The notes beneath the pieces were generated by a model that was not told the origin of the DNA, searched no databases, and worked only from the letters and a program-made list of their open reading frames with translations. Below are positions 1,659 through 64,000 of a stretch of 64,000 nucleotides of DNA, in pieces (positions within the stretch are counted from its first letter, which is position 1; the number at the start of each line of letters is the position of its first letter). Location: assembly GCA_023379385.1 (NCBI GenBank), contig JAMCUS010000013.1, forward strand, positions 19,770-83,769. The letters run 5' to 3'. A program made the position numbers and the translations under genes. Source of the stretch: Thermoplasmatota archaeon. Lineage in GTDB: Archaea > Thermoplasmatota > Thermoplasmata > Lutacidiplasmatales > JAMCUS01.

Positions 1659-1869
1659 AAAACGATACACCTATTCAACAGTATTAAAAAGACAACATCA
1701 AATTTTAACTTTACGGTTGTCTCTATGCTGGACATAGACCGTTAGGTAGCATTATATGAAATACAATGTATCTCAACGACAGCATTTCCCACAACTGTTG
1801 AAAAGACGTACTGAAGATACGCTGAAAATAACGATAAACCGGATAGTGCTGTGTACTATCTCTACAGGC

Positions 1870-2403
1870 TGAGTGTATATTAAAATCTCTGTTTTGCAGC
1901 CCTTCATTGCGGCTCTTAGTCAGTCATAAGAGCCGCAAAGGAGGTAGATTAAATGTATAAACGAAAATGAACCCATCAATGAATATTATAATTCAATCAA
2001 GAAAAGGAAGGGGTCAGGTAGGTTTGCACATGTATCCACAATGCGCAAACTCACGAGAATGATATACAAAATGCTAACAGAGAGAGAGGAGTAGAAATAT
2101 CAAAGTCCTGTACTGACAGAGAAGAAGCTGTCAAAGCTTGAGGAGGAATGAACTAATCCGGATAAACAGGTCAACGAAACCTGCTGCATGGCTATCTATT
2201 ACATGAGTCAGATTTCTGAACTCTTAGTGCTGAATGCCAGCATCTGTCTTCGCTGTATTGTCAGATTGCATCTACGAATGCTTATGCGTGTTTGCGAAAA
2301 GGCAGAAAAAACAGGTTTCGCCCTGAACCATAGGATAGGATCATAAGGATGGAGGTGCTAACTATGTAACAGTGAAGGGCTGACCTTAGATTTTACATGC
2401 GTG
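1870..2403 (+). mobile_element. Non-autonomous IS110-family (IS1111-type) deletion derivative, copy 1
   Basis: Near-identical to 58234..58766; subterminal IRs TAAAATCT..CAGCCCTTCA / TGAAGGGCTG..AGATTTTA; RBS GGAGGT and ATG TAT joined out of frame to a transposase C-terminus (KRKGSGRFAHVSTMRKLTRMIYKML); TG at both ends. Confidence 0.85.
2175..2320 (+). ncRNA. Putative bridge/seek RNA of the IS110-derived element (copy 1)
   Basis: Closing stem CGAAACCTG/CAGGTTTCG encloses two stem-internal-loop-stem arms; loop sequences ATGCGTG and GTCA match the element end junction, TTACA and GCTG match the target. Confidence 0.65.
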
Positions 2404-2541
2404 TAATCTATCCGCATAACTAAAAAAAACCTGAATAGGTCAGGGGTACGGATTAGCAATGAACGAAAATGAGGTTGCAGACACATCGTAAACTCCAAGC
2501 AAAGTGTGTCAAGCAATAAAACAATACCAGAACCAGAAAGG

Positions 2542-3316: not shown

Positions 3317-3876
3317 GGGGGAAGCTATAATACTCCGACGCTTTAGCTAGGAGATACATGGACTTCCCCCATCATCCTTAACATAACTATAACTATAACT
3401 ATATATATATGAAACGCATATATATATGTCTATCTATGATACGTACATCAATACAGACGGTATCCAAATAAGTAGTCTTTGAAGATTTAAATGTTCAGGG
3501 AATGGTTCAGAATCACAATCTAGCAAAGAGTATATCAGACTCCTCCTGGAGCAAACTGATAGACATGTGTGTTTACAAAGCCGAAAATGCTGGTAAATAC
3601 ATAGAGTTTGTAAATCCAAGAGGTACAAGTCAGTTATGCTCACGTTGCGGAGCAGTTGTAAAGAAGGACTTATCCGTAAGAATCCATAGTTGTAATAACT
3701 GTGGATTAGTAATGGATCGGGATCTTAACGCTGCTCTGAACATAAGAGGGAGGTACATACGGCATGTGTGAAACTCTGTAAAAACGTCTGCGGATGCTCT
3801 GACCCCTACTCAGACAGCCGAGCAAGTCGGAAGTATGAAGCAGGAAGCTCCGATACTTTAGCATGGAGTAGTTCAT
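3317..3876 (+). mobile_element. Internally deleted IS200/IS605 element with truncated tnpB (3502..3771)
   Basis: Paired end hairpins CTCCGACGCTTTAGCTAGGAG and CTCCGATACTTTAGCATGGAG, terminal GTTCAT; ORF holds only the TnpB C-terminus (TSQLCSRCG..HSCNNCGLVMDRDLNAALNI). Confidence 0.85.
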
Positions 3877-3896: not shown

Positions 3897-6800
3897 ATGA
3901 TATTGGTGAAATTTATGTTTAAAGACACTGTAAAAAATTTATATTTACATAAATGGTGTTTAGCGACGATTTTCGTAATATTCCTATTTCTGGCGTCCCC
4001 TTTCACTGCTGTTGCATCAAATGGCCATTCTGTGCGAACGAATAATCTAACTGGCAGTTTAATAAAAAACGGAAATGGGCTGTATACTGTGGATCAATCA
4101 ATCTCAAATAACAAAATGGTGCAGCTACCATATAGAATCCACAACACAGATAACGCCAGAACAACGGGGCCATATACAGGCATGATGACCGTTATGGTCT
4201 CATTTAAACTCTCCAACAGAACGGAACTCAATCAATACTTAACAAATTTATCAGAGTTTAACAATCCGGAATACCATCATTACATGAGCAGAGCAGATTT
4301 TACAGCGAAATTCTCACCCTCTGAAACATTATATTCAAATGCTGTCAACTACTTTTCTAAATTTCCCAGTACCAGAGTTACCACATTTTCGGATAGAGTA
4401 TCCATAGTGATAAAAGCACCGTCAAGAGTTATAGAAAAGATCTTCAATGTGAGCATAGAAAACTATAGAATGAATAACATTGAATTTTACTCTACAGATA
4501 ATAAACCAGCACTGCCTTCGTATATAGGCCAATCCATTGATTACATATCCGGATTGAGCAACCAATCGTCTATACAACTGAATTCATATCCTGCAGGAGG
4601 TATGAGACGATTTAACGAGAAACAGTTATTAAAAAGTAATAATATTATAACATCAGGTGGTTTTCCGCAACCGGTTACATCGGGTGGAGTTCAAAATATA
4701 TACGGATCGGATCTTCAGGTTGCATACGACGAGCAGACGTTACTCAACACAACATATCCAACGAATGAGGTAATAGCAACAATACTGTGGTCAGGAAGTA
4801 ACAGCAGCGGTACACCTGTAGGTCCGTTTTATCCATCGGATATATACGCATATTACAATGCAACACTTCCATCATACGAACCGCATGCAAAGGTATACGG
4901 GGTACCAATAAACGGTGCACCCGAGCCTGGTGTATCCGCAACTTACGACGCTACAGGAGCAAATGGAGAGAACACACTGGATCTGGAAATGGTGGGAAGC
5001 ACAGCACCGGGTGCAAGCGTATTCAATGTATACGGTCCAAATGCCACAATTACGAATCTAAATGAAGCTTTTGCATATATACTCAATCCGAACGCATCAT
5101 TTCCACAGCTCAATAAGGTATCTGTTATAACGAATTCATGGGGAGGGCCTGAATACAATAATACGGTATGGTACACATATCTGCAGGAGGCACAGGCGAG
5201 GGGTATAACAGTACTTGCAAGCAGTGGTGACTCAGGAGACAATCCATCAAGCAGCAAGTACACACCGAATCCAAACTATCCTAGTGATTACGTACAGTTT
5301 CCGTCAGCCATGGCGTACAACAGCTTTGGAGTTACGGCGGTGGGAGGGACTACCCTCACACTATCATCAAATTTACAGATATTCAACCAGACGGCGTGGT
5401 ATATATCAGCCAGCGATAGTGCAGACGGAGGTCCTGCAGGAAGCACAGGAGGTATAAGCCAGGTATTTCCGGAGCCAGTATGGCAACTGAATACAGAAGC
5501 CAATAATACATTGCAGGGACATGGCAGAGGTGTTCCTGATATTGCTGCCATCGGGAACAATACTATAATATATATATCTATAAATGGAAGTGGTAAGGGG
5601 ATAGCAGAAGGGGGAACAAGCGTAGCATCGCCCGTGGAAGCGGGTATTGTAGCAGAAATGGATGCTATACTTAACTTAAATGCACAACCAAACCTAGGAT
5701 ATCTCAATCCGCTGATTTATCCGTTGGCCAATCAGCAGGTAGCACCACAGACCACTACATCAACAACAGGTTTTTATCAGACAGGTGTGTATAACTCTAC
5801 CCTGCCAACCCTTCCGTTCTACAATGTGATGTACGGAAGAAATCATGTATACAATGCATACTATGGCTATAACCTTGTTACGGGGTGGGGATCGATAGAT
5901 GCATACAACTTCACAATGTATGTACTGAATGTGAATTATAACAACAGCATAGGCGCTTTATCCGGGGTAATGAATCAGTTGAATTTAACAGCACTTAATG
6001 TGACATCATATTATCCGAATGGAACCGTAAATATAAACTTCAATGCATCAATACAGCAGAACTTTTTCATAGCGAATAGCATGGGTATGCCGATATACTG
6101 GATACAGAATGTGATTTATATATACGGTACACCTGCAAAAGGATATAATATGTGGTATACGGGCTGGGTGGTGTACCCATTTTACTGGCTATATCCATCT
6201 GACGTAATATATGAATATAACTTTCCTGCCGGAAAGTTAGTTACTTTACCCCATAGCTTCAGGATAGCTTCATGGTTATCCAATCTTAATACGTTTAATA
6301 AGCAGACGATGAATTTTGAGGTGAATTCGCAGGTAATAACCCTGCTAGTTCCTGGATCCTCATATATAATTGGATTATTGAATTATAGTTATCTCTGGCA
6401 GGGATCTGTAATATCTAACGGGCCCTACCCAAACAATCCATATCCAGGTGGACTTGCACCGCAATTTGGAGTAGTTGGAGGGCCATCCCTTGGAAATGGA
6501 AATTTTTATGTGCCTACATATGGAAATATGACACCATACCTGATGCCAATGGGGTCAAGCCAGTTTACAAAAGCCCCCTCAATGACATATAGCTACAGCG
6601 TAGATCAAACAGGAGAAAGCGCGACCAATCTGGCATGGGTAAAACAGAGCAATGGTGCGTGGAATATAACGACCTCTGCAGGAAGTACAGAACAGGGTGT
6701 ATTATCATACATATCACAAACCGATTACAAAGTAACGTTTACAGAGAGTGGATTACCGGCAGGTACTATATGGTATGTGAACATAACAGGTGGTAAATCA

Positions 6801-7883
6801 TATTCATCAACAACAGGAACAATAACATTTAGTGAGCCGAATGGGACGTACACATACACAGTAGCGTCAGAAGATAAAGCATACTCACCGAATCCTGCAA
6901 CAGGATCTTTTACAGTAAACGGAGTGAATACATCTAAATCCATTACCTTTTCATTATTATCATCTGCGTATACTGCAACGTTTACAGATAGCAGATTGCC
7001 ATCCGGTACTAAATGGTATGTAAATATAACCGGCGGTGCATCATATTCATCCGCAACCACCACGATAACATTTACAGAGCTGAATGGGACATACACATAC
7101 ACAGTAGCGACAGGAGATAAAGCGTACTCACCTAACCCTGCAACAGGATCTTTTACAGTAAACGGAGCGAATGTTAGCCGAACAATATCATTTAATTTGG
7201 TAACGTATAGCGTAACGCTTACAGAGAGTGGATTGCCACCGGGCACTAACTGGAGTGTAACGCTGAATGGAGTGACAGAGCAATCTACAGCATCAAGCAT
7301 CGTATTTACAGAGCCCAATGGTACCTACGCGTATACAGTAAGCAATGTATCTGTATATTCAGCAACACCATCACCCGGCAGTGTAACTGTAAATGGTAAG
7401 AATGCGTCTGTATCTGTAATATTCAAGCAGGTTATGTATAGCGTAACGCTTACAGAGAGTGGATTGCCACTGGGCACTAACTGGAGTGTAACGCTGAATG
7501 GAGTGACAGAGCATTCTACAGCATCAAGCATCGTATTTACAGAGCCCAATGGTACCTATGCGTACTTTATAGGATATGTGACAGGATATGCAACCTCATT
7601 TGTATCCGGTAGCGTAACGGTAAATGGAAAAGCAGTTACACTAACAATATCATTCACATCTACCAGTACATCTACCAACACGCCTACGGCAGTGTCATCA
7701 TATGTGTACTATATTATTATTGTGGTAGTAATAATAATTGTTGTTATTGCAGCAATTATACTCATGAAAAAGAAAGGCAAGTCATCAGGTGCTAGCATGG
7801 GTGCAAACAATGCAAGTTATACACAAAGCACAATGCAAAATGGAATGGGAGGAGGACAATTTCCACCACAGCCACCAGTATAA
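3897..7883 (+). CDS. Membrane-anchored sedolisin (S53) protease fused to a thermopsin-like domain and surface repeats
   Basis: Signal peptide, pro-kumamolisin-like domain, ENTLDLE, SGDSG, GVPDIAA, GGTSVASP, YNLVTGWGS; ASIQQN..YWIQNV thermopsin-like motif; four FTESGLP-type repeats; C-terminal TM helix. Confidence 0.88.
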   Translation: MILVKFMFKDTVKNLYLHKWCLATIFVIFLFLASPFTAVASNGHSVRTNNLTGSLIKNGNGLYTVDQSISNNKMVQLPYRIHNTDNARTTGPYTGMMTVMVSFKLSNRTELNQYLTNLSEFNNPEYHHYMSRADFTAKFSPSETLYSNAVNYFSKFPSTRVTTFSDRVSIVIKAPSRVIEKIFNVSIENYRMNNIEFYSTDNKPALPSYIGQSIDYISGLSNQSSIQLNSYPAGGMRRFNEKQLLKSNNIITSGGFPQPVTSGGVQNIYGSDLQVAYDEQTLLNTTYPTNEVIATILWSGSNSSGTPVGPFYPSDIYAYYNATLPSYEPHAKVYGVPINGAPEPGVSATYDATGANGENTLDLEMVGSTAPGASVFNVYGPNATITNLNEAFAYILNPNASFPQLNKVSVITNSWGGPEYNNTVWYTYLQEAQARGITVLASSGDSGDNPSSSKYTPNPNYPSDYVQFPSAMAYNSFGVTAVGGTTLTLSSNLQIFNQTAWYISASDSADGGPAGSTGGISQVFPEPVWQLNTEANNTLQGHGRGVPDIAAIGNNTIIYISINGSGKGIAEGGTSVASPVEAGIVAEMDAILNLNAQPNLGYLNPLIYPLANQQVAPQTTTSTTGFYQTGVYNSTLPTLPFYNVMYGRNHVYNAYYGYNLVTGWGSIDAYNFTMYVLNVNYNNSIGALSGVMNQLNLTALNVTSYYPNGTVNINFNASIQQNFFIANSMGMPIYWIQNVIYIYGTPAKGYNMWYTGWVVYPFYWLYPSDVIYEYNFPAGKLVTLPHSFRIASWLSNLNTFNKQTMNFEVNSQVITLLVPGSSYIIGLLNYSYLWQGSVISNGPYPNNPYPGGLAPQFGVVGGPSLGNGNFYVPTYGNMTPYLMPMGSSQFTKAPSMTYSYSVDQTGESATNLAWVKQSNGAWNITTSAGSTEQGVLSYISQTDYKVTFTESGLPAGTIWYVNITGGKSYSSTTGTITFSEPNGTYTYTVASEDKAYSPNPATGSFTVNGVNTSKSITFSLLSSAYTATFTDSRLPSGTKWYVNITGGASYSSATTTITFTELNGTYTYTVATGDKAYSPNPATGSFTVNGANVSRTISFNLVTYSVTLTESGLPPGTNWSVTLNGVTEQSTASSIVFTEPNGTYAYTVSNVSVYSATPSPGSVTVNGKNASVSVIFKQVMYSVTLTESGLPLGTNWSVTLNGVTEHSTASSIVFTEPNGTYAYFIGYVTGYATSFVSGSVTVNGKAVTLTISFTSTSTSTNTPTAVSSYVYYIIIVVVIIIVVIAAIILMKKKGKSSGASMGANNASYTQSTMQNGMGGGQFPPQPPV
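6727..7660 (+). repeat. Four intragenic ~77-81-codon surface-module repeats (two closely related pairs)
   Basis: 243-bp offset between units 1 and 2; 231-bp offset with a ~120-bp near-identical block between units 3 and 4. Confidence 0.85.
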
Positions 7884-57932: not shown

Positions 57933-58233
57933 CCCCAAATTACATGTTTTGGGACAAAATTATGTATGCGTAGCTCTACTTCATCGACGTACCTTGATAT
58001 GTATTGATTGATTCACCTACAATCTTTTTTACAGAGTTCCGCGCTGTCTGTATGAATGCTATATGAGATCTAACCTATATCTATGAAAACGGATTATGAT
58101 ATGATGATCCTAGATGTGGGGAGGGGGAGTTGAGAAGTATTGTGAGCAGCGTTAAGATACCTATCTACTTCCAATCAACAGTTATTACACATGTGTATCC
58201 TATCAGACAGAGTCTTCTTTACCACCGACAGGT

Positions 58234-58766
58234 TGACTGAATATTAAAATCTCTGTTTTGCAGCCCTTCATTGAGGCTCTTAGTCAGTCATAAGAGCCGC
58301 ATAGGAGGTGGATTAAATGTATAAACGAAAATGAACCCATCAATGAATAGTACATTCAATCAAGAAAAGGAAGGGATCTTGGAAGTTTGCACATGTGTCC
58401 ACAATGCGCAAACTCACGAGAATGATATACAAAATGCTAACAGAGAGAGAGGAGTGGAAATACCAAAGTCCTGTACTGACAGAGAAGAAGCTGCCAAAGC
58501 TTGAGGAGGAATGAACCAATCCGGATAAACAGGTCAACGAAACCTGCTGCATGGCTATGCCTTCCATGAGTCAAATATTTGAACTCTTGGTGCTGAGTGC
58601 CAGTATCTGTCTTCGCTGTATTGTCAGATTGCATCTATGAATGCTTATGCGTGTTTGCGAAAAGGCAGAAAAAACAGGTTTCGCCCTGGTCCATAGGGTA
58701 GGATCATAAGGATGGAGATGTTAGCTATGTAGTAGTGAAGGGCTGACCTTAGATTTTACATGCGTG
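58234..58766 (+). mobile_element. Non-autonomous IS110-family (IS1111-type) deletion derivative, copy 2
   Basis: Colinear with 1870..2403, same deletion junction, same subterminal IRs and TG ends. Confidence 0.85.
58538..58683 (+). ncRNA. Putative bridge/seek RNA (copy 2)
   Basis: Same closing stem and donor-matching arm as 2175..2320; the first arm's loop differs. Confidence 0.6.
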
Positions 58767-59033
58767 TAAGATAACAAAATATTTTGTCAAGACAATCAAA
58801 AATTCACATCCAAAAAATGTTTTTTAGGACTAAAATGGATCATTTTTGGTATTCTCTTACAGCCTGTGATCCACAATATGAGCGTAATTGACTTGTTCCA
58901 TTCTGGGATCTATGGATCTTACATATTTACCAGCATTTGCAGAGTTGTAAATCAGATTCTATTAACCTTGAGGTAAAGTGGTTGATAAAAACGTTTACAA
59001 TCATATAGAAATTATGCTCTGTGGATGGCATTA

Positions 59034-61173: not shown

Positions 61174-62424
61174 TTAACAACCACCTTTAGAAGTTATCAT
61201 CTGCTTGATGCTTAAACTTCGTGGGTATAACCCTGTACCCTCTATCCCGTTCGCAAAAGCTTCAGGTATTGCCTTTTTTATTATATTGTATGCACCGTTA
61301 AGATCTGCATGAATTATCTTGCCTAATCCTGATTGAAACGCACCTCTTTTTACTCTTTTACCCATGTAATTATCATGATGTTCTATGCTTTCGTTATCAA
61401 GGAAAGAGCATTTACTGGTATGGCTTTCATTCACTATTTTGACTTCTATTCCATGCTCTTCTGCCTTGTATTGTATTTGCTGTATCAGTTTATTGAAAGG
61501 AATCTGTACGAACTTCTGATTGTTTATCTTTCCAAGATTAGTATTTTGTTTCCAACCATCATTGTGTCCTATGACTGTTGTATCTACTTTTGATTTTATA
61601 GCGTAATTGATTATGGGTCTGGATGTTTTATGCATAAAGTTCTTTATCTTATGGTTCCTATTAATGAAGAGTTTCCGTATGTGTTTCGTTGACTTTTTTT
61701 CATTACCTTGCAGATCGTTTATGCCTCTGAGTCTGGATAGTTCTTTATTAAAGAATTGATTGGTTGATTTGAGCAATCCTGCCCTTACAGCAATCCCCTG
61801 TTCAAAGAGGTTGTTACCAATAGTTACAAGATTTCTCACGCCAATATCTATTCCCATGACCCTCTGCGGCTTTAGTGCAAATTGTTTTATTCCTGCTGTT
61901 TCTTTCGTGTACACAATCTCTATTACATAGCCGACTATTTGAGGTATTATCCTCACTTCTCTTAGATTTACATTTTCCAGTCCTGTTTTAACCTCCGATC
62001 CCATTATCTTCGGAAATTTTAATATGCCTTTATCAATTTTACATTGCTGATTTGTAAAAATCAGCATGAACTCACCGTTTTTATTTTTATAATGCGGTGA
62101 TCTCGGCATTTTTATAAATTTATCAGGATGTTTTTTCCATGTTTTCAAGGCTTTAAAGAACGGGTTCCATGATTGTATTGATATTTTAATAGTCCACTGT
62201 GCTGTCTGTGCAGGTAGTTTCTGATAATTATTATACTCCTCATTATCAGAAGGAATTGAGAGTTGTTTAGCAAGAACAGTATATTCGCTTAGTTTTTCAT
62301 GCCTTAAGAACTGATTCAATAGAATGTAATTAACCTGATTGTAGAGATTTTTAGAAAGATGACACATATGTGAAATAGTTTCATCCTTTTTAATGTATAT
62401 CTGTTCAGTCATTGTCACTTTCAT
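61174..62424 (-). CDS. tnpB: IS200/IS605 RNA-guided endonuclease TnpB (no adjacent tnpA)
   Basis: SKNLYN, GIDIG, QIPF..YKAE, ESHTSKCS, HADLNGAYNI; right end ATCATAAC at 61152. Confidence 0.93.
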   Translation of the reverse strand: MKVTMTEQIYIKKDETISHMCHLSKNLYNQVNYILLNQFLRHEKLSEYTVLAKQLSIPSDNEEYNNYQKLPAQTAQWTIKISIQSWNPFFKALKTWKKHPDKFIKMPRSPHYKNKNGEFMLIFTNQQCKIDKGILKFPKIMGSEVKTGLENVNLREVRIIPQIVGYVIEIVYTKETAGIKQFALKPQRVMGIDIGVRNLVTIGNNLFEQGIAVRAGLLKSTNQFFNKELSRLRGINDLQGNEKKSTKHIRKLFINRNHKIKNFMHKTSRPIINYAIKSKVDTTVIGHNDGWKQNTNLGKINNQKFVQIPFNKLIQQIQYKAEEHGIEVKIVNESHTSKCSFLDNESIEHHDNYMGKRVKRGAFQSGLGKIIHADLNGAYNIIKKAIPEAFANGIEGTGLYPRSLSIKQMITSKGGC

Positions 62425-62777: not shown

Positions 62778-64000
62778 ATGTTGCATAAGAAAGATATGTT
62801 TGGATACGCAATAGTTGGATTGATTGTAGCGTTGTTTGTTGTTGGATTGTTAGGTGGTAGCAATGTATTGAACATTCTACCATCATCAAATTATGGATAC
62901 CCGGCAGCAACTCCATCTGTTTTATTAACGGCTACGCCTACCAATGGTACAGCACCCCTGAATGTTTCATTTAGTGTAGCTGTTAGCGGGCTGTATAGCA
63001 GTGTTACGAGTGTGGAGTGGTTTTTCGGTAATAATGTAACAGGTAGTACAACCGGTGTAAATACTACATATATATACAAAGTAGCTGGTACATATACAGC
63101 ACATGCTGTTGTAACGACTACCAGTAGTCTATATGGTAATTCTACTTATCCGTCTAATAACGTCACCATTAGTGTATTTACAGGATATGCAGTAACTTTT
63201 ACAGAAAGCGGATTGGCAAGTGGAACAGGCTGGAATGTAACGCTGAACAATGTTACACATAGCTCAACAACGGGAACAATAACGTTTACAGAGGTAAACG
63301 GAACATACAGTTATACAGTAGCCAATGTAACAGGATATACAGTAACGCCATCCGTCGGTAACGTAACGGTAAATGGTAAGGCAGTAGTTGTAAATGTGAC
63401 ATTCACACCTGTAGTAACACCATCTAAATATACAGTAACGTTTATGGAAAGTGGATTGGCAAGTGGAACAAGCTGGAGTGTAACGCTGAGCGGTAAGACA
63501 CAGAGTTCAACAACAGGAACAATAACGTTTACAGAGGTAAACGGAACGTACAGCTATACAGTAGCCAATGTATCTGGATACACGGTATCACCATTATCCG
63601 GTAGTGTAACGGTAAATGGCAAAGCGGTTGCTGCGAATGTGACATTCACACCTGTAGTAACACCATCTAAATATACAGTAACATTTACGGAAAGTGGATT
63701 GGCAAGTGGAACAAGCTGGAGTGTAACGCTGAGCGGTAAGACACAGAGTTCAACAACAGGAACAATAACGTTTACAGAGGTAAACGGAACGTACAGCTAT
63801 ACAGTAGCCAATGTATCTGGATACACGGTATCACCATTATCTGGTAGTGTACCGGTAAATGGCACGAATGCGTCTGTATCAGTAACCTTCAAATCCACAA
63901 CAACAACCACTGCAACTTCATCTAGCACGATCATTCTTGCATTAACAGCAATAGTCATAATTGCAGCAATAATAATTGTAGTAGTAGCTATTACAAGAAA
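62778..64000 (+). CDS. Cell-surface protein with PKD domain and FTESGL repeats (3'-truncated; absent from ORF track)
   Basis: GGAGG RBS, ATG 62778; signal peptide, GTAPLNVSF..WFFG..AGTY PKD, three repeats, TM helix at the window edge. Confidence 0.85.
   Translation, partial: MLHKKDMFGYAIVGLIVALFVVGLLGGSNVLNILPSSNYGYPAATPSVLLTATPTNGTAPLNVSFSVAVSGLYSSVTSVEWFFGNNVTGSTTGVNTTYIYKVAGTYTAHAVVTTTSSLYGNSTYPSNNVTISVFTGYAVTFTESGLASGTGWNVTLNNVTHSSTTGTITFTEVNGTYSYTVANVTGYTVTPSVGNVTVNGKAVVVNVTFTPVVTPSKYTVTFMESGLASGTSWSVTLSGKTQSSTTGTITFTEVNGTYSYTVANVSGYTVSPLSGSVTVNGKAVAANVTFTPVVTPSKYTVTFTESGLASGTSWSVTLSGKTQSSTTGTITFTEVNGTYSYTVANVSGYTVSPLSGSVPVNGTNASVSVTFKSTTTTTATSSSTIILALTAIVIIAAIIIVVVAITR
63393..63863 (+). 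repeat. Near-perfect 243-bp intragenic tandem duplication
   Basis: Two units differ at about four positions over ~225 bp; a more diverged unit precedes them. Confidence 0.9.

Follow-up and report, generated by a model that had tools for sequence, protein, structure and literature searches.

Two internally deleted insertion sequences in the window

The window analyzed here is a stretch of 64,000 nucleotides (nt) from the 1.63-Mb assembly of a Thermoplasmatota archaeon (C13:19770-83769; 45 contigs, ∼35% G+C, 93.8% complete). An archaeal host is indicated by a gene for ribosomal protein L19e, which among the control genomes is confined to the four archaea; a search for archaeal RNase P gave no match. 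The window holds two colinear elements that are ∼93% identical in a pairwise alignment, copy 1 at 1870-2403 (C13a) and copy 2 at 58234-58766 (C13b). Each consists of the two ends of an insertion sequence (IS) of the IS1111 group (IS110 family), a remnant of its transposase gene (tnp) and, between the tnp stop codon and the right end, the gene of an RNA of ∼181 nt. We put the probability at about 75% that both are non-autonomous, internally deleted IS1111-type derivatives that have kept their ends and their bridge RNA. Feature coordinates are collected in Table 1.

Both copies have the build of the IS1111 group. The left non-coding end is short and the right one long (81 nt and, at 2152-2403, 252 nt in copy 1), which agrees with the ∼250 nt of 3' non-coding sequence originally estimated. 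Subterminal inverted repeats (IRs), 7-17 bp in this group, are bipartite: the inner and outer pairs measure 13 nt (92% identity) and 8 nt (100%) in copy 1, and 10 nt and 8 nt (both 100%) in copy 2. The left end of copy 1 also forms a hairpin, GCGGCTCTTA (1909-1918) pairing with TAAGAGCCGC (1927-1936), with one mismatch in copy 2; the IRs and the hairpin both lie where the original prediction had placed them. In two complete relatives from metagenomes (L050 and L051, see below), this hairpin ahead of the ribosome-binding site is kept by changes on both sides, GCTGCTCT.../...AGAGCAGC taking the place of GCGGCTCTTA/TAAGAGCCGC. In the copies on C14 and C22 the hairpin loop is inverted relative to the other copies. 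All left ends in the genome read TG-A(C/G)TG(A/T)ATATTAAAATC, copy 1 reading AGTGTATATT and most copies ACTGAATATT. All 8 right ends in the genome read ...TTTTACATG(C/T)GTG, that is ...ACATG(C/T)GTG, followed by TAA (CAA in one).

Between these ends, the transposase gene is reduced to its two extremities. In copy 1, the ATG at 1953-1955, followed by TAT AAA CGA AAA (MYKRK), is fused to the final 60 tnp codons in a different frame. Because the longer relatives start with MNKGKRR or MDKEKKR, we take this ATG for the original tnp start. Its frame stops after 5 codons, so that no residual open reading frame (ORF) is translated from it. The remnant of copy 1 has an additional in-frame TAG at 2092-2094, and that of copy 2 contains two TGA and one TAA codons within its tblastn match. 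The deletion proposed to join ATG TAT to the last ∼60 codons is thus present and its junction shared, while the residual ORF proposed with it is out of frame and closed almost at once. The junction, ...ACGAAAA-TGAACCC..., is identical to the base in C13a, C13b and the copies on C14 and C30. At the 3' breakpoint, the parental sequence as preserved on C19 and C24 reads GAGAAATAAACCC, which places the break within a short A-rich microhomology (∼4-6 nt; GAAAAT vs GAGAAAT).

The family of the remnant was identified by tblastn. The remnant of copy 1 is 91% identical to residues 135-198 of a longer tnp remnant on C19 (P0001) and 70% identical to residues 291-353 of a full-length relative used as query (P0002). 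P0001 carries Transposase_20 at residues 61-145. Its 78 longer relatives are all recorded as having PF01548 and PF02371; 77 are 349-396 amino acids long and 50-76% identical to it, the other being a weak match of 33%. The nearest named transposase relatives come from metagenome-assembled genomes of Thermoplasmatota and Nitrososphaerota. The similarity to IS110 (DEDD_Tnp/Transposase_20) on which the original prediction hinged is therefore present. Of the DEDD (RuvC-like) recombinase with PF01548 and PF02371, the element keeps only 5 + 60 codons; because what is left is a C-terminal remnant homologous to the family, it derives from an IS110-family member and is not an autonomous member itself.

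A metagenome scan with an alignment of the relatives returned 80 loci. In three of these (L128, L050 and L051) the similarity to the element, at 67-77%, reaches all the way to its end. Two are complete elements, L050 of 1414 bp and L051 of 1443 bp, which share their end sequences with the window copies; their left ends start with the same TG-ACTG...TAAAAT block. A pattern search of the genome contigs with P0001 gave 24 pattern matches, none of which was confirmed.

Table 1. Positions of the two window copies, their target sites and further copies in the assembly. Positions without a contig name refer to the window; copies on other contigs were found by blastn. MITE, miniature inverted-repeat transposable element; R2, covariance model described in the text; a slash in the target site marks the insertion point.
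Feature	Position	Strand	Details
Copy 1, left target half and core	1864..1871	+	ACAGGC + TG
Copy 1, left end	1872..1952	+	outer IR 1881-1888, inner IR 1897-1909, hairpin, GGAGG ahead of ATG
Copy 1, tnp remnant	1953..2151	+	start and 4 codons (1953-1967), last 60 codons (1969-2148), stop 2149-2151
Copy 1, bridge/seek RNA	2153..2339	+	closing stem 2156-2183/2312-2336; R2 138.6 bits
Copy 1, target-binding arm (arm 1)	2189-2240	+	right-target guide TCTATTACA 2195-2203, apical hairpin 2205-2223, left-target guide AGTGCTG 2226-2232
Copy 1, donor-binding arm (arm 2)	2244-2305	+	GTCA 2260-2263, ATGCGTG 2284-2290
Copy 1, right end tail	2340..2403	+	inner IR 2370-2382, outer IR 2388-2395, donor end ACATGCG 2395-2401, core TG 2402-2403
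Copy 1, right target half	2404..2412	+	TAATCTATC
Copy 2, left target half and core	58228..58235	+	ACAGGT + TG; left terminal inverted repeat of ∼105-nt MITE
Copy 2, left end	58236..58316	+	begins ACTGAATATT; subterminal IRs 58245-58252, 58261-58270
Copy 2, tnp remnant	58317..58514	+	same deletion junction, additional 1-nt deletion
Copy 2, bridge/seek RNA	58516..58702	+	R2 139.2 bits
Copy 2, target guides	58558-58566; 58589-58595	+	TGCCTTCCA (right); GGTGCTG (left)
Copy 2, donor loop	58617-58630; 58647-58653	+	TGTATTGTCAGATT; ATGCGTG
Copy 2, right end tail	58703..58766	+	subterminal IRs 58736-58745, 58751-58758; ends ACATGCG-TG
Copy 2, remainder of interrupted MITE	58767..58868	+	TAAGATAAC...TTACAGCCTGT; target, outside element
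Predicted target sequence			ACAGGCTG/TAATAGA; ACAGGCTGTAATAGA
Third copy matching the full 543-nt query, as copies 1 and 2 do	C14:1331-1872
Copy cut by contig end	C30
Copy with longer tnp remnant	C19		198-218 codons
Copy with longer tnp remnant	C24		∼96-149 codons
Copy with different internal deletion	C22
Solo left end	C28
Right-end fragments, two	C10, C38

Copies in the genome and their target

A blastn search of the assembly with the element found pieces of it at 10 loci. The two copies originally reported are real, but the count was too low, as at least four copies (C13a, C13b, C14 and C30) share the one tnp deletion, with different flanks at every locus. Both ends kept, no transposase and an identical internal structure at four unrelated loci are features of a non-autonomous derivative resembling a MITE. 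Identity between the two window copies extends from ACAGG (1864 and 58228) to TGTAA (2406 and 58769), and the flanks beyond are unrelated. Overall, the copies are ∼7% diverged and mosaic.

The word at which identity begins and ends is the target. ACAGGY and TG precede the element at 4 of 6 left junctions, and TAA follows 7 of 8 right ends. In the genome, ACAGGYTG/TAA occurs as 33 empty sites, against ∼1.8 expected from composition, and as 4 occupied ones. The arrangement ACAGGY-TG-element-TG-TAA leaves one TG to spare and therefore implies insertion without target duplication; as in the IS1111 group, insertion is site-specific at a conserved core. The ∼100 nt to the right of copy 2 and of the copies on C14 and C24 belong to a repeat that matches more than 35 places in the genome. 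This repeat is a MITE of ∼105 nt whose uninterrupted copies start with GACAGGYTGTAA and end with TTACAGCCTGTC, its terminal inverted repeats, and the element sits inside the left one (examples of the MITE are window 58770-58868, C19:37316, C27:40541 and C8:10493). The 33 empty sites are made up of MITE copies and single repeat-like words. At C3:11132-11330, an N-terminal tnp fragment (family residues 3-56) abuts a MITE end, ACAGGCCG-CATG-TAAAAG, that has four extra bases exactly at the position where the element normally inserts.

A bridge RNA between the tnp remnant and the right end

The 3' non-coding sequence had been folded by eye into a closing stem with two arms, and computation and comparison with relatives agree with this shape. 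The inner closing stem (2175-2183/2312-2320) is complementary at 9 of 9 positions. The minimum-free-energy fold of 2153-2339 consists of the closing stem and two arms (z = −2.72; 3 of 200 shuffled sequences fold as well), and a consensus fold of seven sequences obtained with RNAalifold has a long closing stem and two arms, the same shape as the single-sequence fold of copy 1. The loop motifs GTCA, ATGCGTG, TTACA (2199-2203) and AGTGCTG are all present at the positions originally given for them.

With a covariance model built from eight sequences (R1; threshold E ≤ 0.01), a match was obtained in 70 of the 81 related loci. In each of these the RNA has the orientation of tnp and begins at the stop codon of a full-length DEDD/Transposase_20 gene; at least six of the 11 loci lacking a match end within tnp. 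In the alignment of the 70 sequences (60 distinct rows), 92.9% of cells pair; shifting the partners by 1-3 columns lowers this to 28-48%. Both members have changed in 47 of 51 pairs, and covariation scores 0.409, compared with 0.03-0.06 for the shifted controls; the alignment was fitted to the model, which favors the structure, and the shifted controls carry the same bias. Covariation in the stems, proposed as a check of the original prediction, is therefore strong among the relatives.

A second model (R2), made from the 70 relatives only and thus from no sequence of this genome, matched the genome six times, on each occasion along its full length of 184 positions (149.9, 148.9, 140.9, 139.2, 138.6 and 119.3 bits). 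Of 150 further genomes of the order, three contain a single match. A scan of window positions 1800-2500 against Rfam 15 with E up to 10 gave only chance matches of 12-15 bits. Because its loops match the flanks and ends of its own element, we regard the RNA as a bridge or seek RNA of the IS1111 type, which in that group lies at the right end and has target- and donor-binding internal loops. As judged from its sequence, the RNA of the window copies is a structurally intact bridge RNA.

Guide code of the family and guides of the resident copies

Nowhere does the alignment vary more than in the two strands of the arm-1 internal loop. As the right-target guide we took the 9 nt preceding the apical helix and looked for their reverse complement within 80 nt downstream of the RNA; as the left-target guide we took the 7 nt, with TG as the last two, on the 3' strand of this loop. 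Against its own right flank, the right-target guide shows a mean of 1.28 mismatches of 9 over 25 distinct guides (0, 1, 2, 3 and 4 mismatches in 6, 10, 6, 2 and 1 guides, hence at most two in 22 of 25), compared with a mean of 3.29 in 600 non-cognate pairs. The match always starts directly after the ...TTACAxxxG end, which equals the 3' strand of the arm-2 loop; seven or more variants of this end occur, each matching the donor loop of its own element. Likewise, an exact match of the left-target guide to the left flank is present in 7 of 17 distinct cases vs 2 of 272 non-cognate pairs. This left match stands directly before a left end beginning ACTGA..., ACAGA... or ACTCA... (L051, L096, L111, L098, L062, L108 and L061), and L050 shows the same match by eye.

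The 5' strand of arm 1 is accordingly complementary to the right flank and its 3' strand identical to the left flank. The same order is given for IS1111 seekRNAs, whose top-strand complement comes ahead of the sequence matching that strand (PMC11187229), and the arrangement also fits the IS1111 features summarized in PMC11208160. The matches between loops and junctions first noticed by eye in copy 1 thus follow a rule that holds across the family.

Several of these relations are found in the resident copies. ATGCGTG agrees with the right end at all 7 positions in copy 1 and in copy 2, and GTCA is complementary to the TG and AC of the left junction of copy 2. The right guide of copy 1, TCTATTACA, is the reverse complement of TGTAATAGA, the commonest reading among the MITE copies listed, and its own core and right flank agree with the reverse complement of that guide at 7 of 9 positions. 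Across the six resident copies, the right guide fits its own flank at 6-8 of 9 positions and the left guide at only 3-4 of 7, no copy favoring its own flanks.

Variation among the six resident copies is concentrated in the target guides, where 9 of 16 RNA positions vary, compared with 16 of 171 in the rest of the RNA (Fisher p = 2e-5). Not one of the 16 donor-guide positions varies, and 8 of 64 do in the right tail. Read from sequence, this pattern points to retargeting or to exchange with diverged relatives.

The 140 nt to the left of copy 1 (window 1723-1863) are a repeat that is found in three more places (C16, C7 and C44) at 88-91% identity, the other copies diverging in sequence after ...TACTATCTC. 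It contains an exact AGTGCTG, the left-target guide of copy 1, at 1845-1851, 19 nt before the real junction, probably by chance.

Search for a helper recombinase, and related elements

The search for copies had been meant to find a full-length IS110 parent as well, and the assembly contains none. With P0002 as query, tblastn gave 10 genome matches, none of full length; the fragments cover residues 3-56 (C3:11132-11293), 137-353 and 243-353. PF01548 detects one intact IS110-family gene, on C38, which encodes 436 amino acids that are 21-25% identical to the family of the element. The genome as assembled thus holds no autonomous partner of the deleted copies. As the assembly is 93.8% complete and in 45 contigs, a cognate copy may be unassembled.

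The distant C38 element (L014, C38:16904-20386, positions 1263-1360 and 1483-2793) has its left end inserted in a fragment of the right end of the window element. Immediately ahead of copy 2, at window 58051-58148, lie 98 nt that are 98% identical to part of this left end. Next to the C38 element, the bridge-RNA models gave no match.

Of 16 sequencing runs found, none is recorded as RNA. Contigs of four public sequencing runs from four studies (mine tailings, mine drainage, sediment), which give no copy number, were compared with copy 1. Its junctions were found free of differences in three of the four runs. An empty allele of the copy-1 site was not seen in the contigs of the four runs, no joint skipping the whole element, nor did any listed record in them bridge the deletion junction with 31 letters on both sides. 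In two of the runs, left ends at least 90% alike continue into the tnp starts of relatives (MDKQRK... and MNKGKRRI...; loose ends 1936 and 1944 in X8 and X9), showing that related autonomous elements exist in such communities. Nothing places one of them in this genome.

Proposed origin and possible spread of the deleted copies

The observed anatomy, deletion, copy distribution, target site, RNA structure and family guide code can be put together as follows. The parent would have been an archaeal IS1111-type insertion sequence of ∼1.4 kb, and a deletion at the short A-rich microhomology would have removed nearly all of its DEDD recombinase gene, giving a derivative of ∼532 bp. All that the described mechanism requires in cis has been kept, namely the subterminal inverted repeats, the bridge RNA of ∼181 nt between the tnp stop and the right end, and two donor ends predicted to meet at the TG core of a circle junction ACATGCG-TG-A(C/G)TG. 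Arm 1 of the RNA would read the target, its 5' loop strand being complementary to the sequence right of the core and its 3' strand identical to that left of it, while the arm-2 loop would read the two ends of the element itself, the left with GTCA and the right with ATGCGTG. Insertion is site-specific, at ACAGGYTG/TAA in the terminal inverted repeats of the ∼105-nt MITE, and without duplication. A cognate recombinase acting in trans may then have carried the deleted form to some of its loci. The original view of a non-autonomous RNA-guided element is supported by the homology of the remnant, the covariation of the RNA in the family and the guide code. The existence of deleted copies is in itself not very surprising, because an internal tnp deletion keeps the RNA automatically.

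Several observations weigh against this reading. The left ends of copy 1 and of the copy on C14 read TGAG, not the TGAC to which GTCA is complementary. The left guides AGTGCTG, GGTGCTG and, on C19, ACTATTG match left flanks of the form CAGGYTG at only 3-4 of 7 positions, and in a test of cognate against non-cognate guides the six resident RNAs fit their own flanks no better than those of the others. These RNAs may still have served as guides; insertion may equally have been guided by another RNA. Moreover, neither the PF01548 search nor tblastn with P0002 found an intact cognate recombinase in the assembly.

The remaining adverse observations bear on a reading in which the deleted form never moved: the insertions would have been made by full-length elements, the deletion having spread by gene conversion or arisen through recurrent breaks at the A-rich microhomology, and the copies would be relics that keep the RNA because it lies outside the deletion. 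The independent deletion on C22 and the break on C28 begin in the same A-rich codons, so the spot breaks recurrently. The copies also share variants in incompatible patterns: copy 1 groups with the copy on C14 at the left end and with those on C24 and C19 at 2013-2021, where C14 groups with copy 2. Such mosaic sharing means that the copies recombine and that the deletion could spread without transposition. Paired positions of the RNA vary at 6 of 102 sites and the dead tnp remnant at 20 of 178 (p = 0.2), so that the stems are not significantly better conserved than the remnant, and the missing helper fits relics too. However, the junction is base-identical at four loci although the microhomology spans only ∼4-6 nt, no full-length cognate copy is left in the assembly as a conversion partner, and a single deleted copy that transposes requires fewer events than conversion across ∼0.9 kb of heterology at each of four sites. 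We consider relics of this kind unlikely, if the strongest of the alternatives.

As to the non-autonomous derivatives themselves, we lean slightly towards the deleted form having reached at least some of the four loci through a cognate recombinase acting in trans. The claim of the original prediction that the element spread after losing its recombinase would follow from four loci with one junction, to which gene conversion is the alternative. Mobilization in trans stays conditional and present activity doubtful because a cognate recombinase was not found, the left guides fit poorly and the copies show ∼7% mosaic divergence. With no intact cognate recombinase and ∼7% difference between copies, they are most likely dormant now.

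Going further, the copies could be dispersed bridge-RNA genes with diversified target loops and fixed donor loops, served by the recombinase of an unassembled copy or a co-resident relative, so that they parasitize an autonomous element and widen its range of targets; we consider this improbable. Slightly less probable still is that they are active guide donors today, their RNAs being transcribed, loading a recombinase encoded elsewhere (unassembled or on a co-resident element) and steering it to new sites as a dispersed guide repertoire. The contrast between variable target guides and invariant donor guides would suit such donors, as would the near-identical left ends that continue into tnp start codons of relatives in two of the four runs, and bridge RNA works when supplied in trans (PMC11208160; PMC11187229). 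On the other hand, expression of the RNA is predicted from sequence only, the cognate recombinase is not found in this genome, and a search of the genome with the variant guides gave no perfect site, only sites with 1-2 mismatches of 14 at best. Their variability could also stem from recombination with diverged relatives or from retargeting in the past, while the element was autonomous. The RNAs of the window copies are presumably made; that they supply guides in trans, as originally suggested, finds no direct support, with no intact cognate recombinase and left guides that fit their own flanks poorly.

A segmental duplication, named with the original prediction as the counter-explanation, or an ordinary untranslated region in place of a guide RNA, has the repeat itself as its only support and was rejected as hardly credible, since the flanks of the window copies differ, at every locus the identity ends, left and right, with the target word, and the loops co-vary with the flanks and ends of each relative.

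Relation to known systems

Like the IS1111-group elements with a 3' bridge or seek RNA, such as ISEc11 (PMC11187229; PMC11208160), the window element has a short left and a long right end, subterminal IRs and site-specific insertion without duplication. In both, the guide RNA lies between tnp and the right terminus, and its part complementary to the top strand comes first. Its full-length relatives measure 1414-1443 bp and ISEc11 measures 1443 bp. It differs in its deleted recombinase gene, its archaeal host, its TG core and the lack of an Rfam 15 match. Insertion into the terminal inverted repeat of another transposable element also has a parallel in the IS1111 group; here the target is a ∼105-nt archaeal MITE repeat.

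MITEPpu9, which carries the ssr9 gene of ISPpu9 in Pseudomonas putida (PMC12288879), is likewise a natural transposase-less element with IS110-family ends and a small-RNA gene, present at several loci, and has been proposed to use the IS transposase in trans (PMC12288879). However, Ssr9 is described as not needed for transposition and as not a bridge RNA, whereas the window element keeps the guide itself; and MITEPpu9 has duplicated end boxes of its own, whereas the window element is a simple internal deletion. Engineered mini-IS derivatives of ISEc11 and ISEc21 with ends of 50-84 bp move when Tnp and seekRNA are supplied in trans (PMC11187229), which shows that the parts kept in the window element suffice in cis. 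Those constructs are laboratory products with no RNA gene inside, whereas the window element is natural and contains one.

Bridge and seek RNAs were described in 2024 from autonomous bacterial elements. Within a literature search whose scope ended short of supplementary tables (e.g. Table 5 of PMC11208160), no natural recombinase-less element that keeps its bridge RNA was found, only MITEPpu9 with its unrelated small RNA. What the window shows is a natural archaeal element cut down to its ends and guide RNA. It belongs to a family of 70 or more related loci, recovered from metagenomes, whose guide code can be read from sequence. Were it mobilized in trans, guide-bearing hyperparasites of bridge recombinases would exist naturally, and the hypervariable target loops, the part most worth following, would record natural retargeting. 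If the copies do form a guide set, an archaeal bridge recombinase would naturally be served by multiple guides. Should they be relics only, they would amount to an ordinary decayed IS that still provides an annotated example and a covariance model for an archaeal bridge-RNA clade missing from Rfam 15.

Neighboring features of the window

Remnants of TnpB/Cas12f-like genes (Cas12f1-like_TNB, OrfB_IS605) lie at 3502-3771 (+ strand) and at 58144-58225 and 58902-58951 (− strand), and a long TnpB/Cas12f-like copy at 61174-62424 (− strand). Copy 2 and its MITE interrupt one such remnant, the two sides of which match window 3655-3736 and 3572-3621 in reverse. Tandem repeats of 243 nt at 6734-7678 and 63185-63913 fall inside two long ORFs, 3897-7883 (1328 amino acids) and 62778-63998; by eye, the former looks like a secreted protease with repeated domains.

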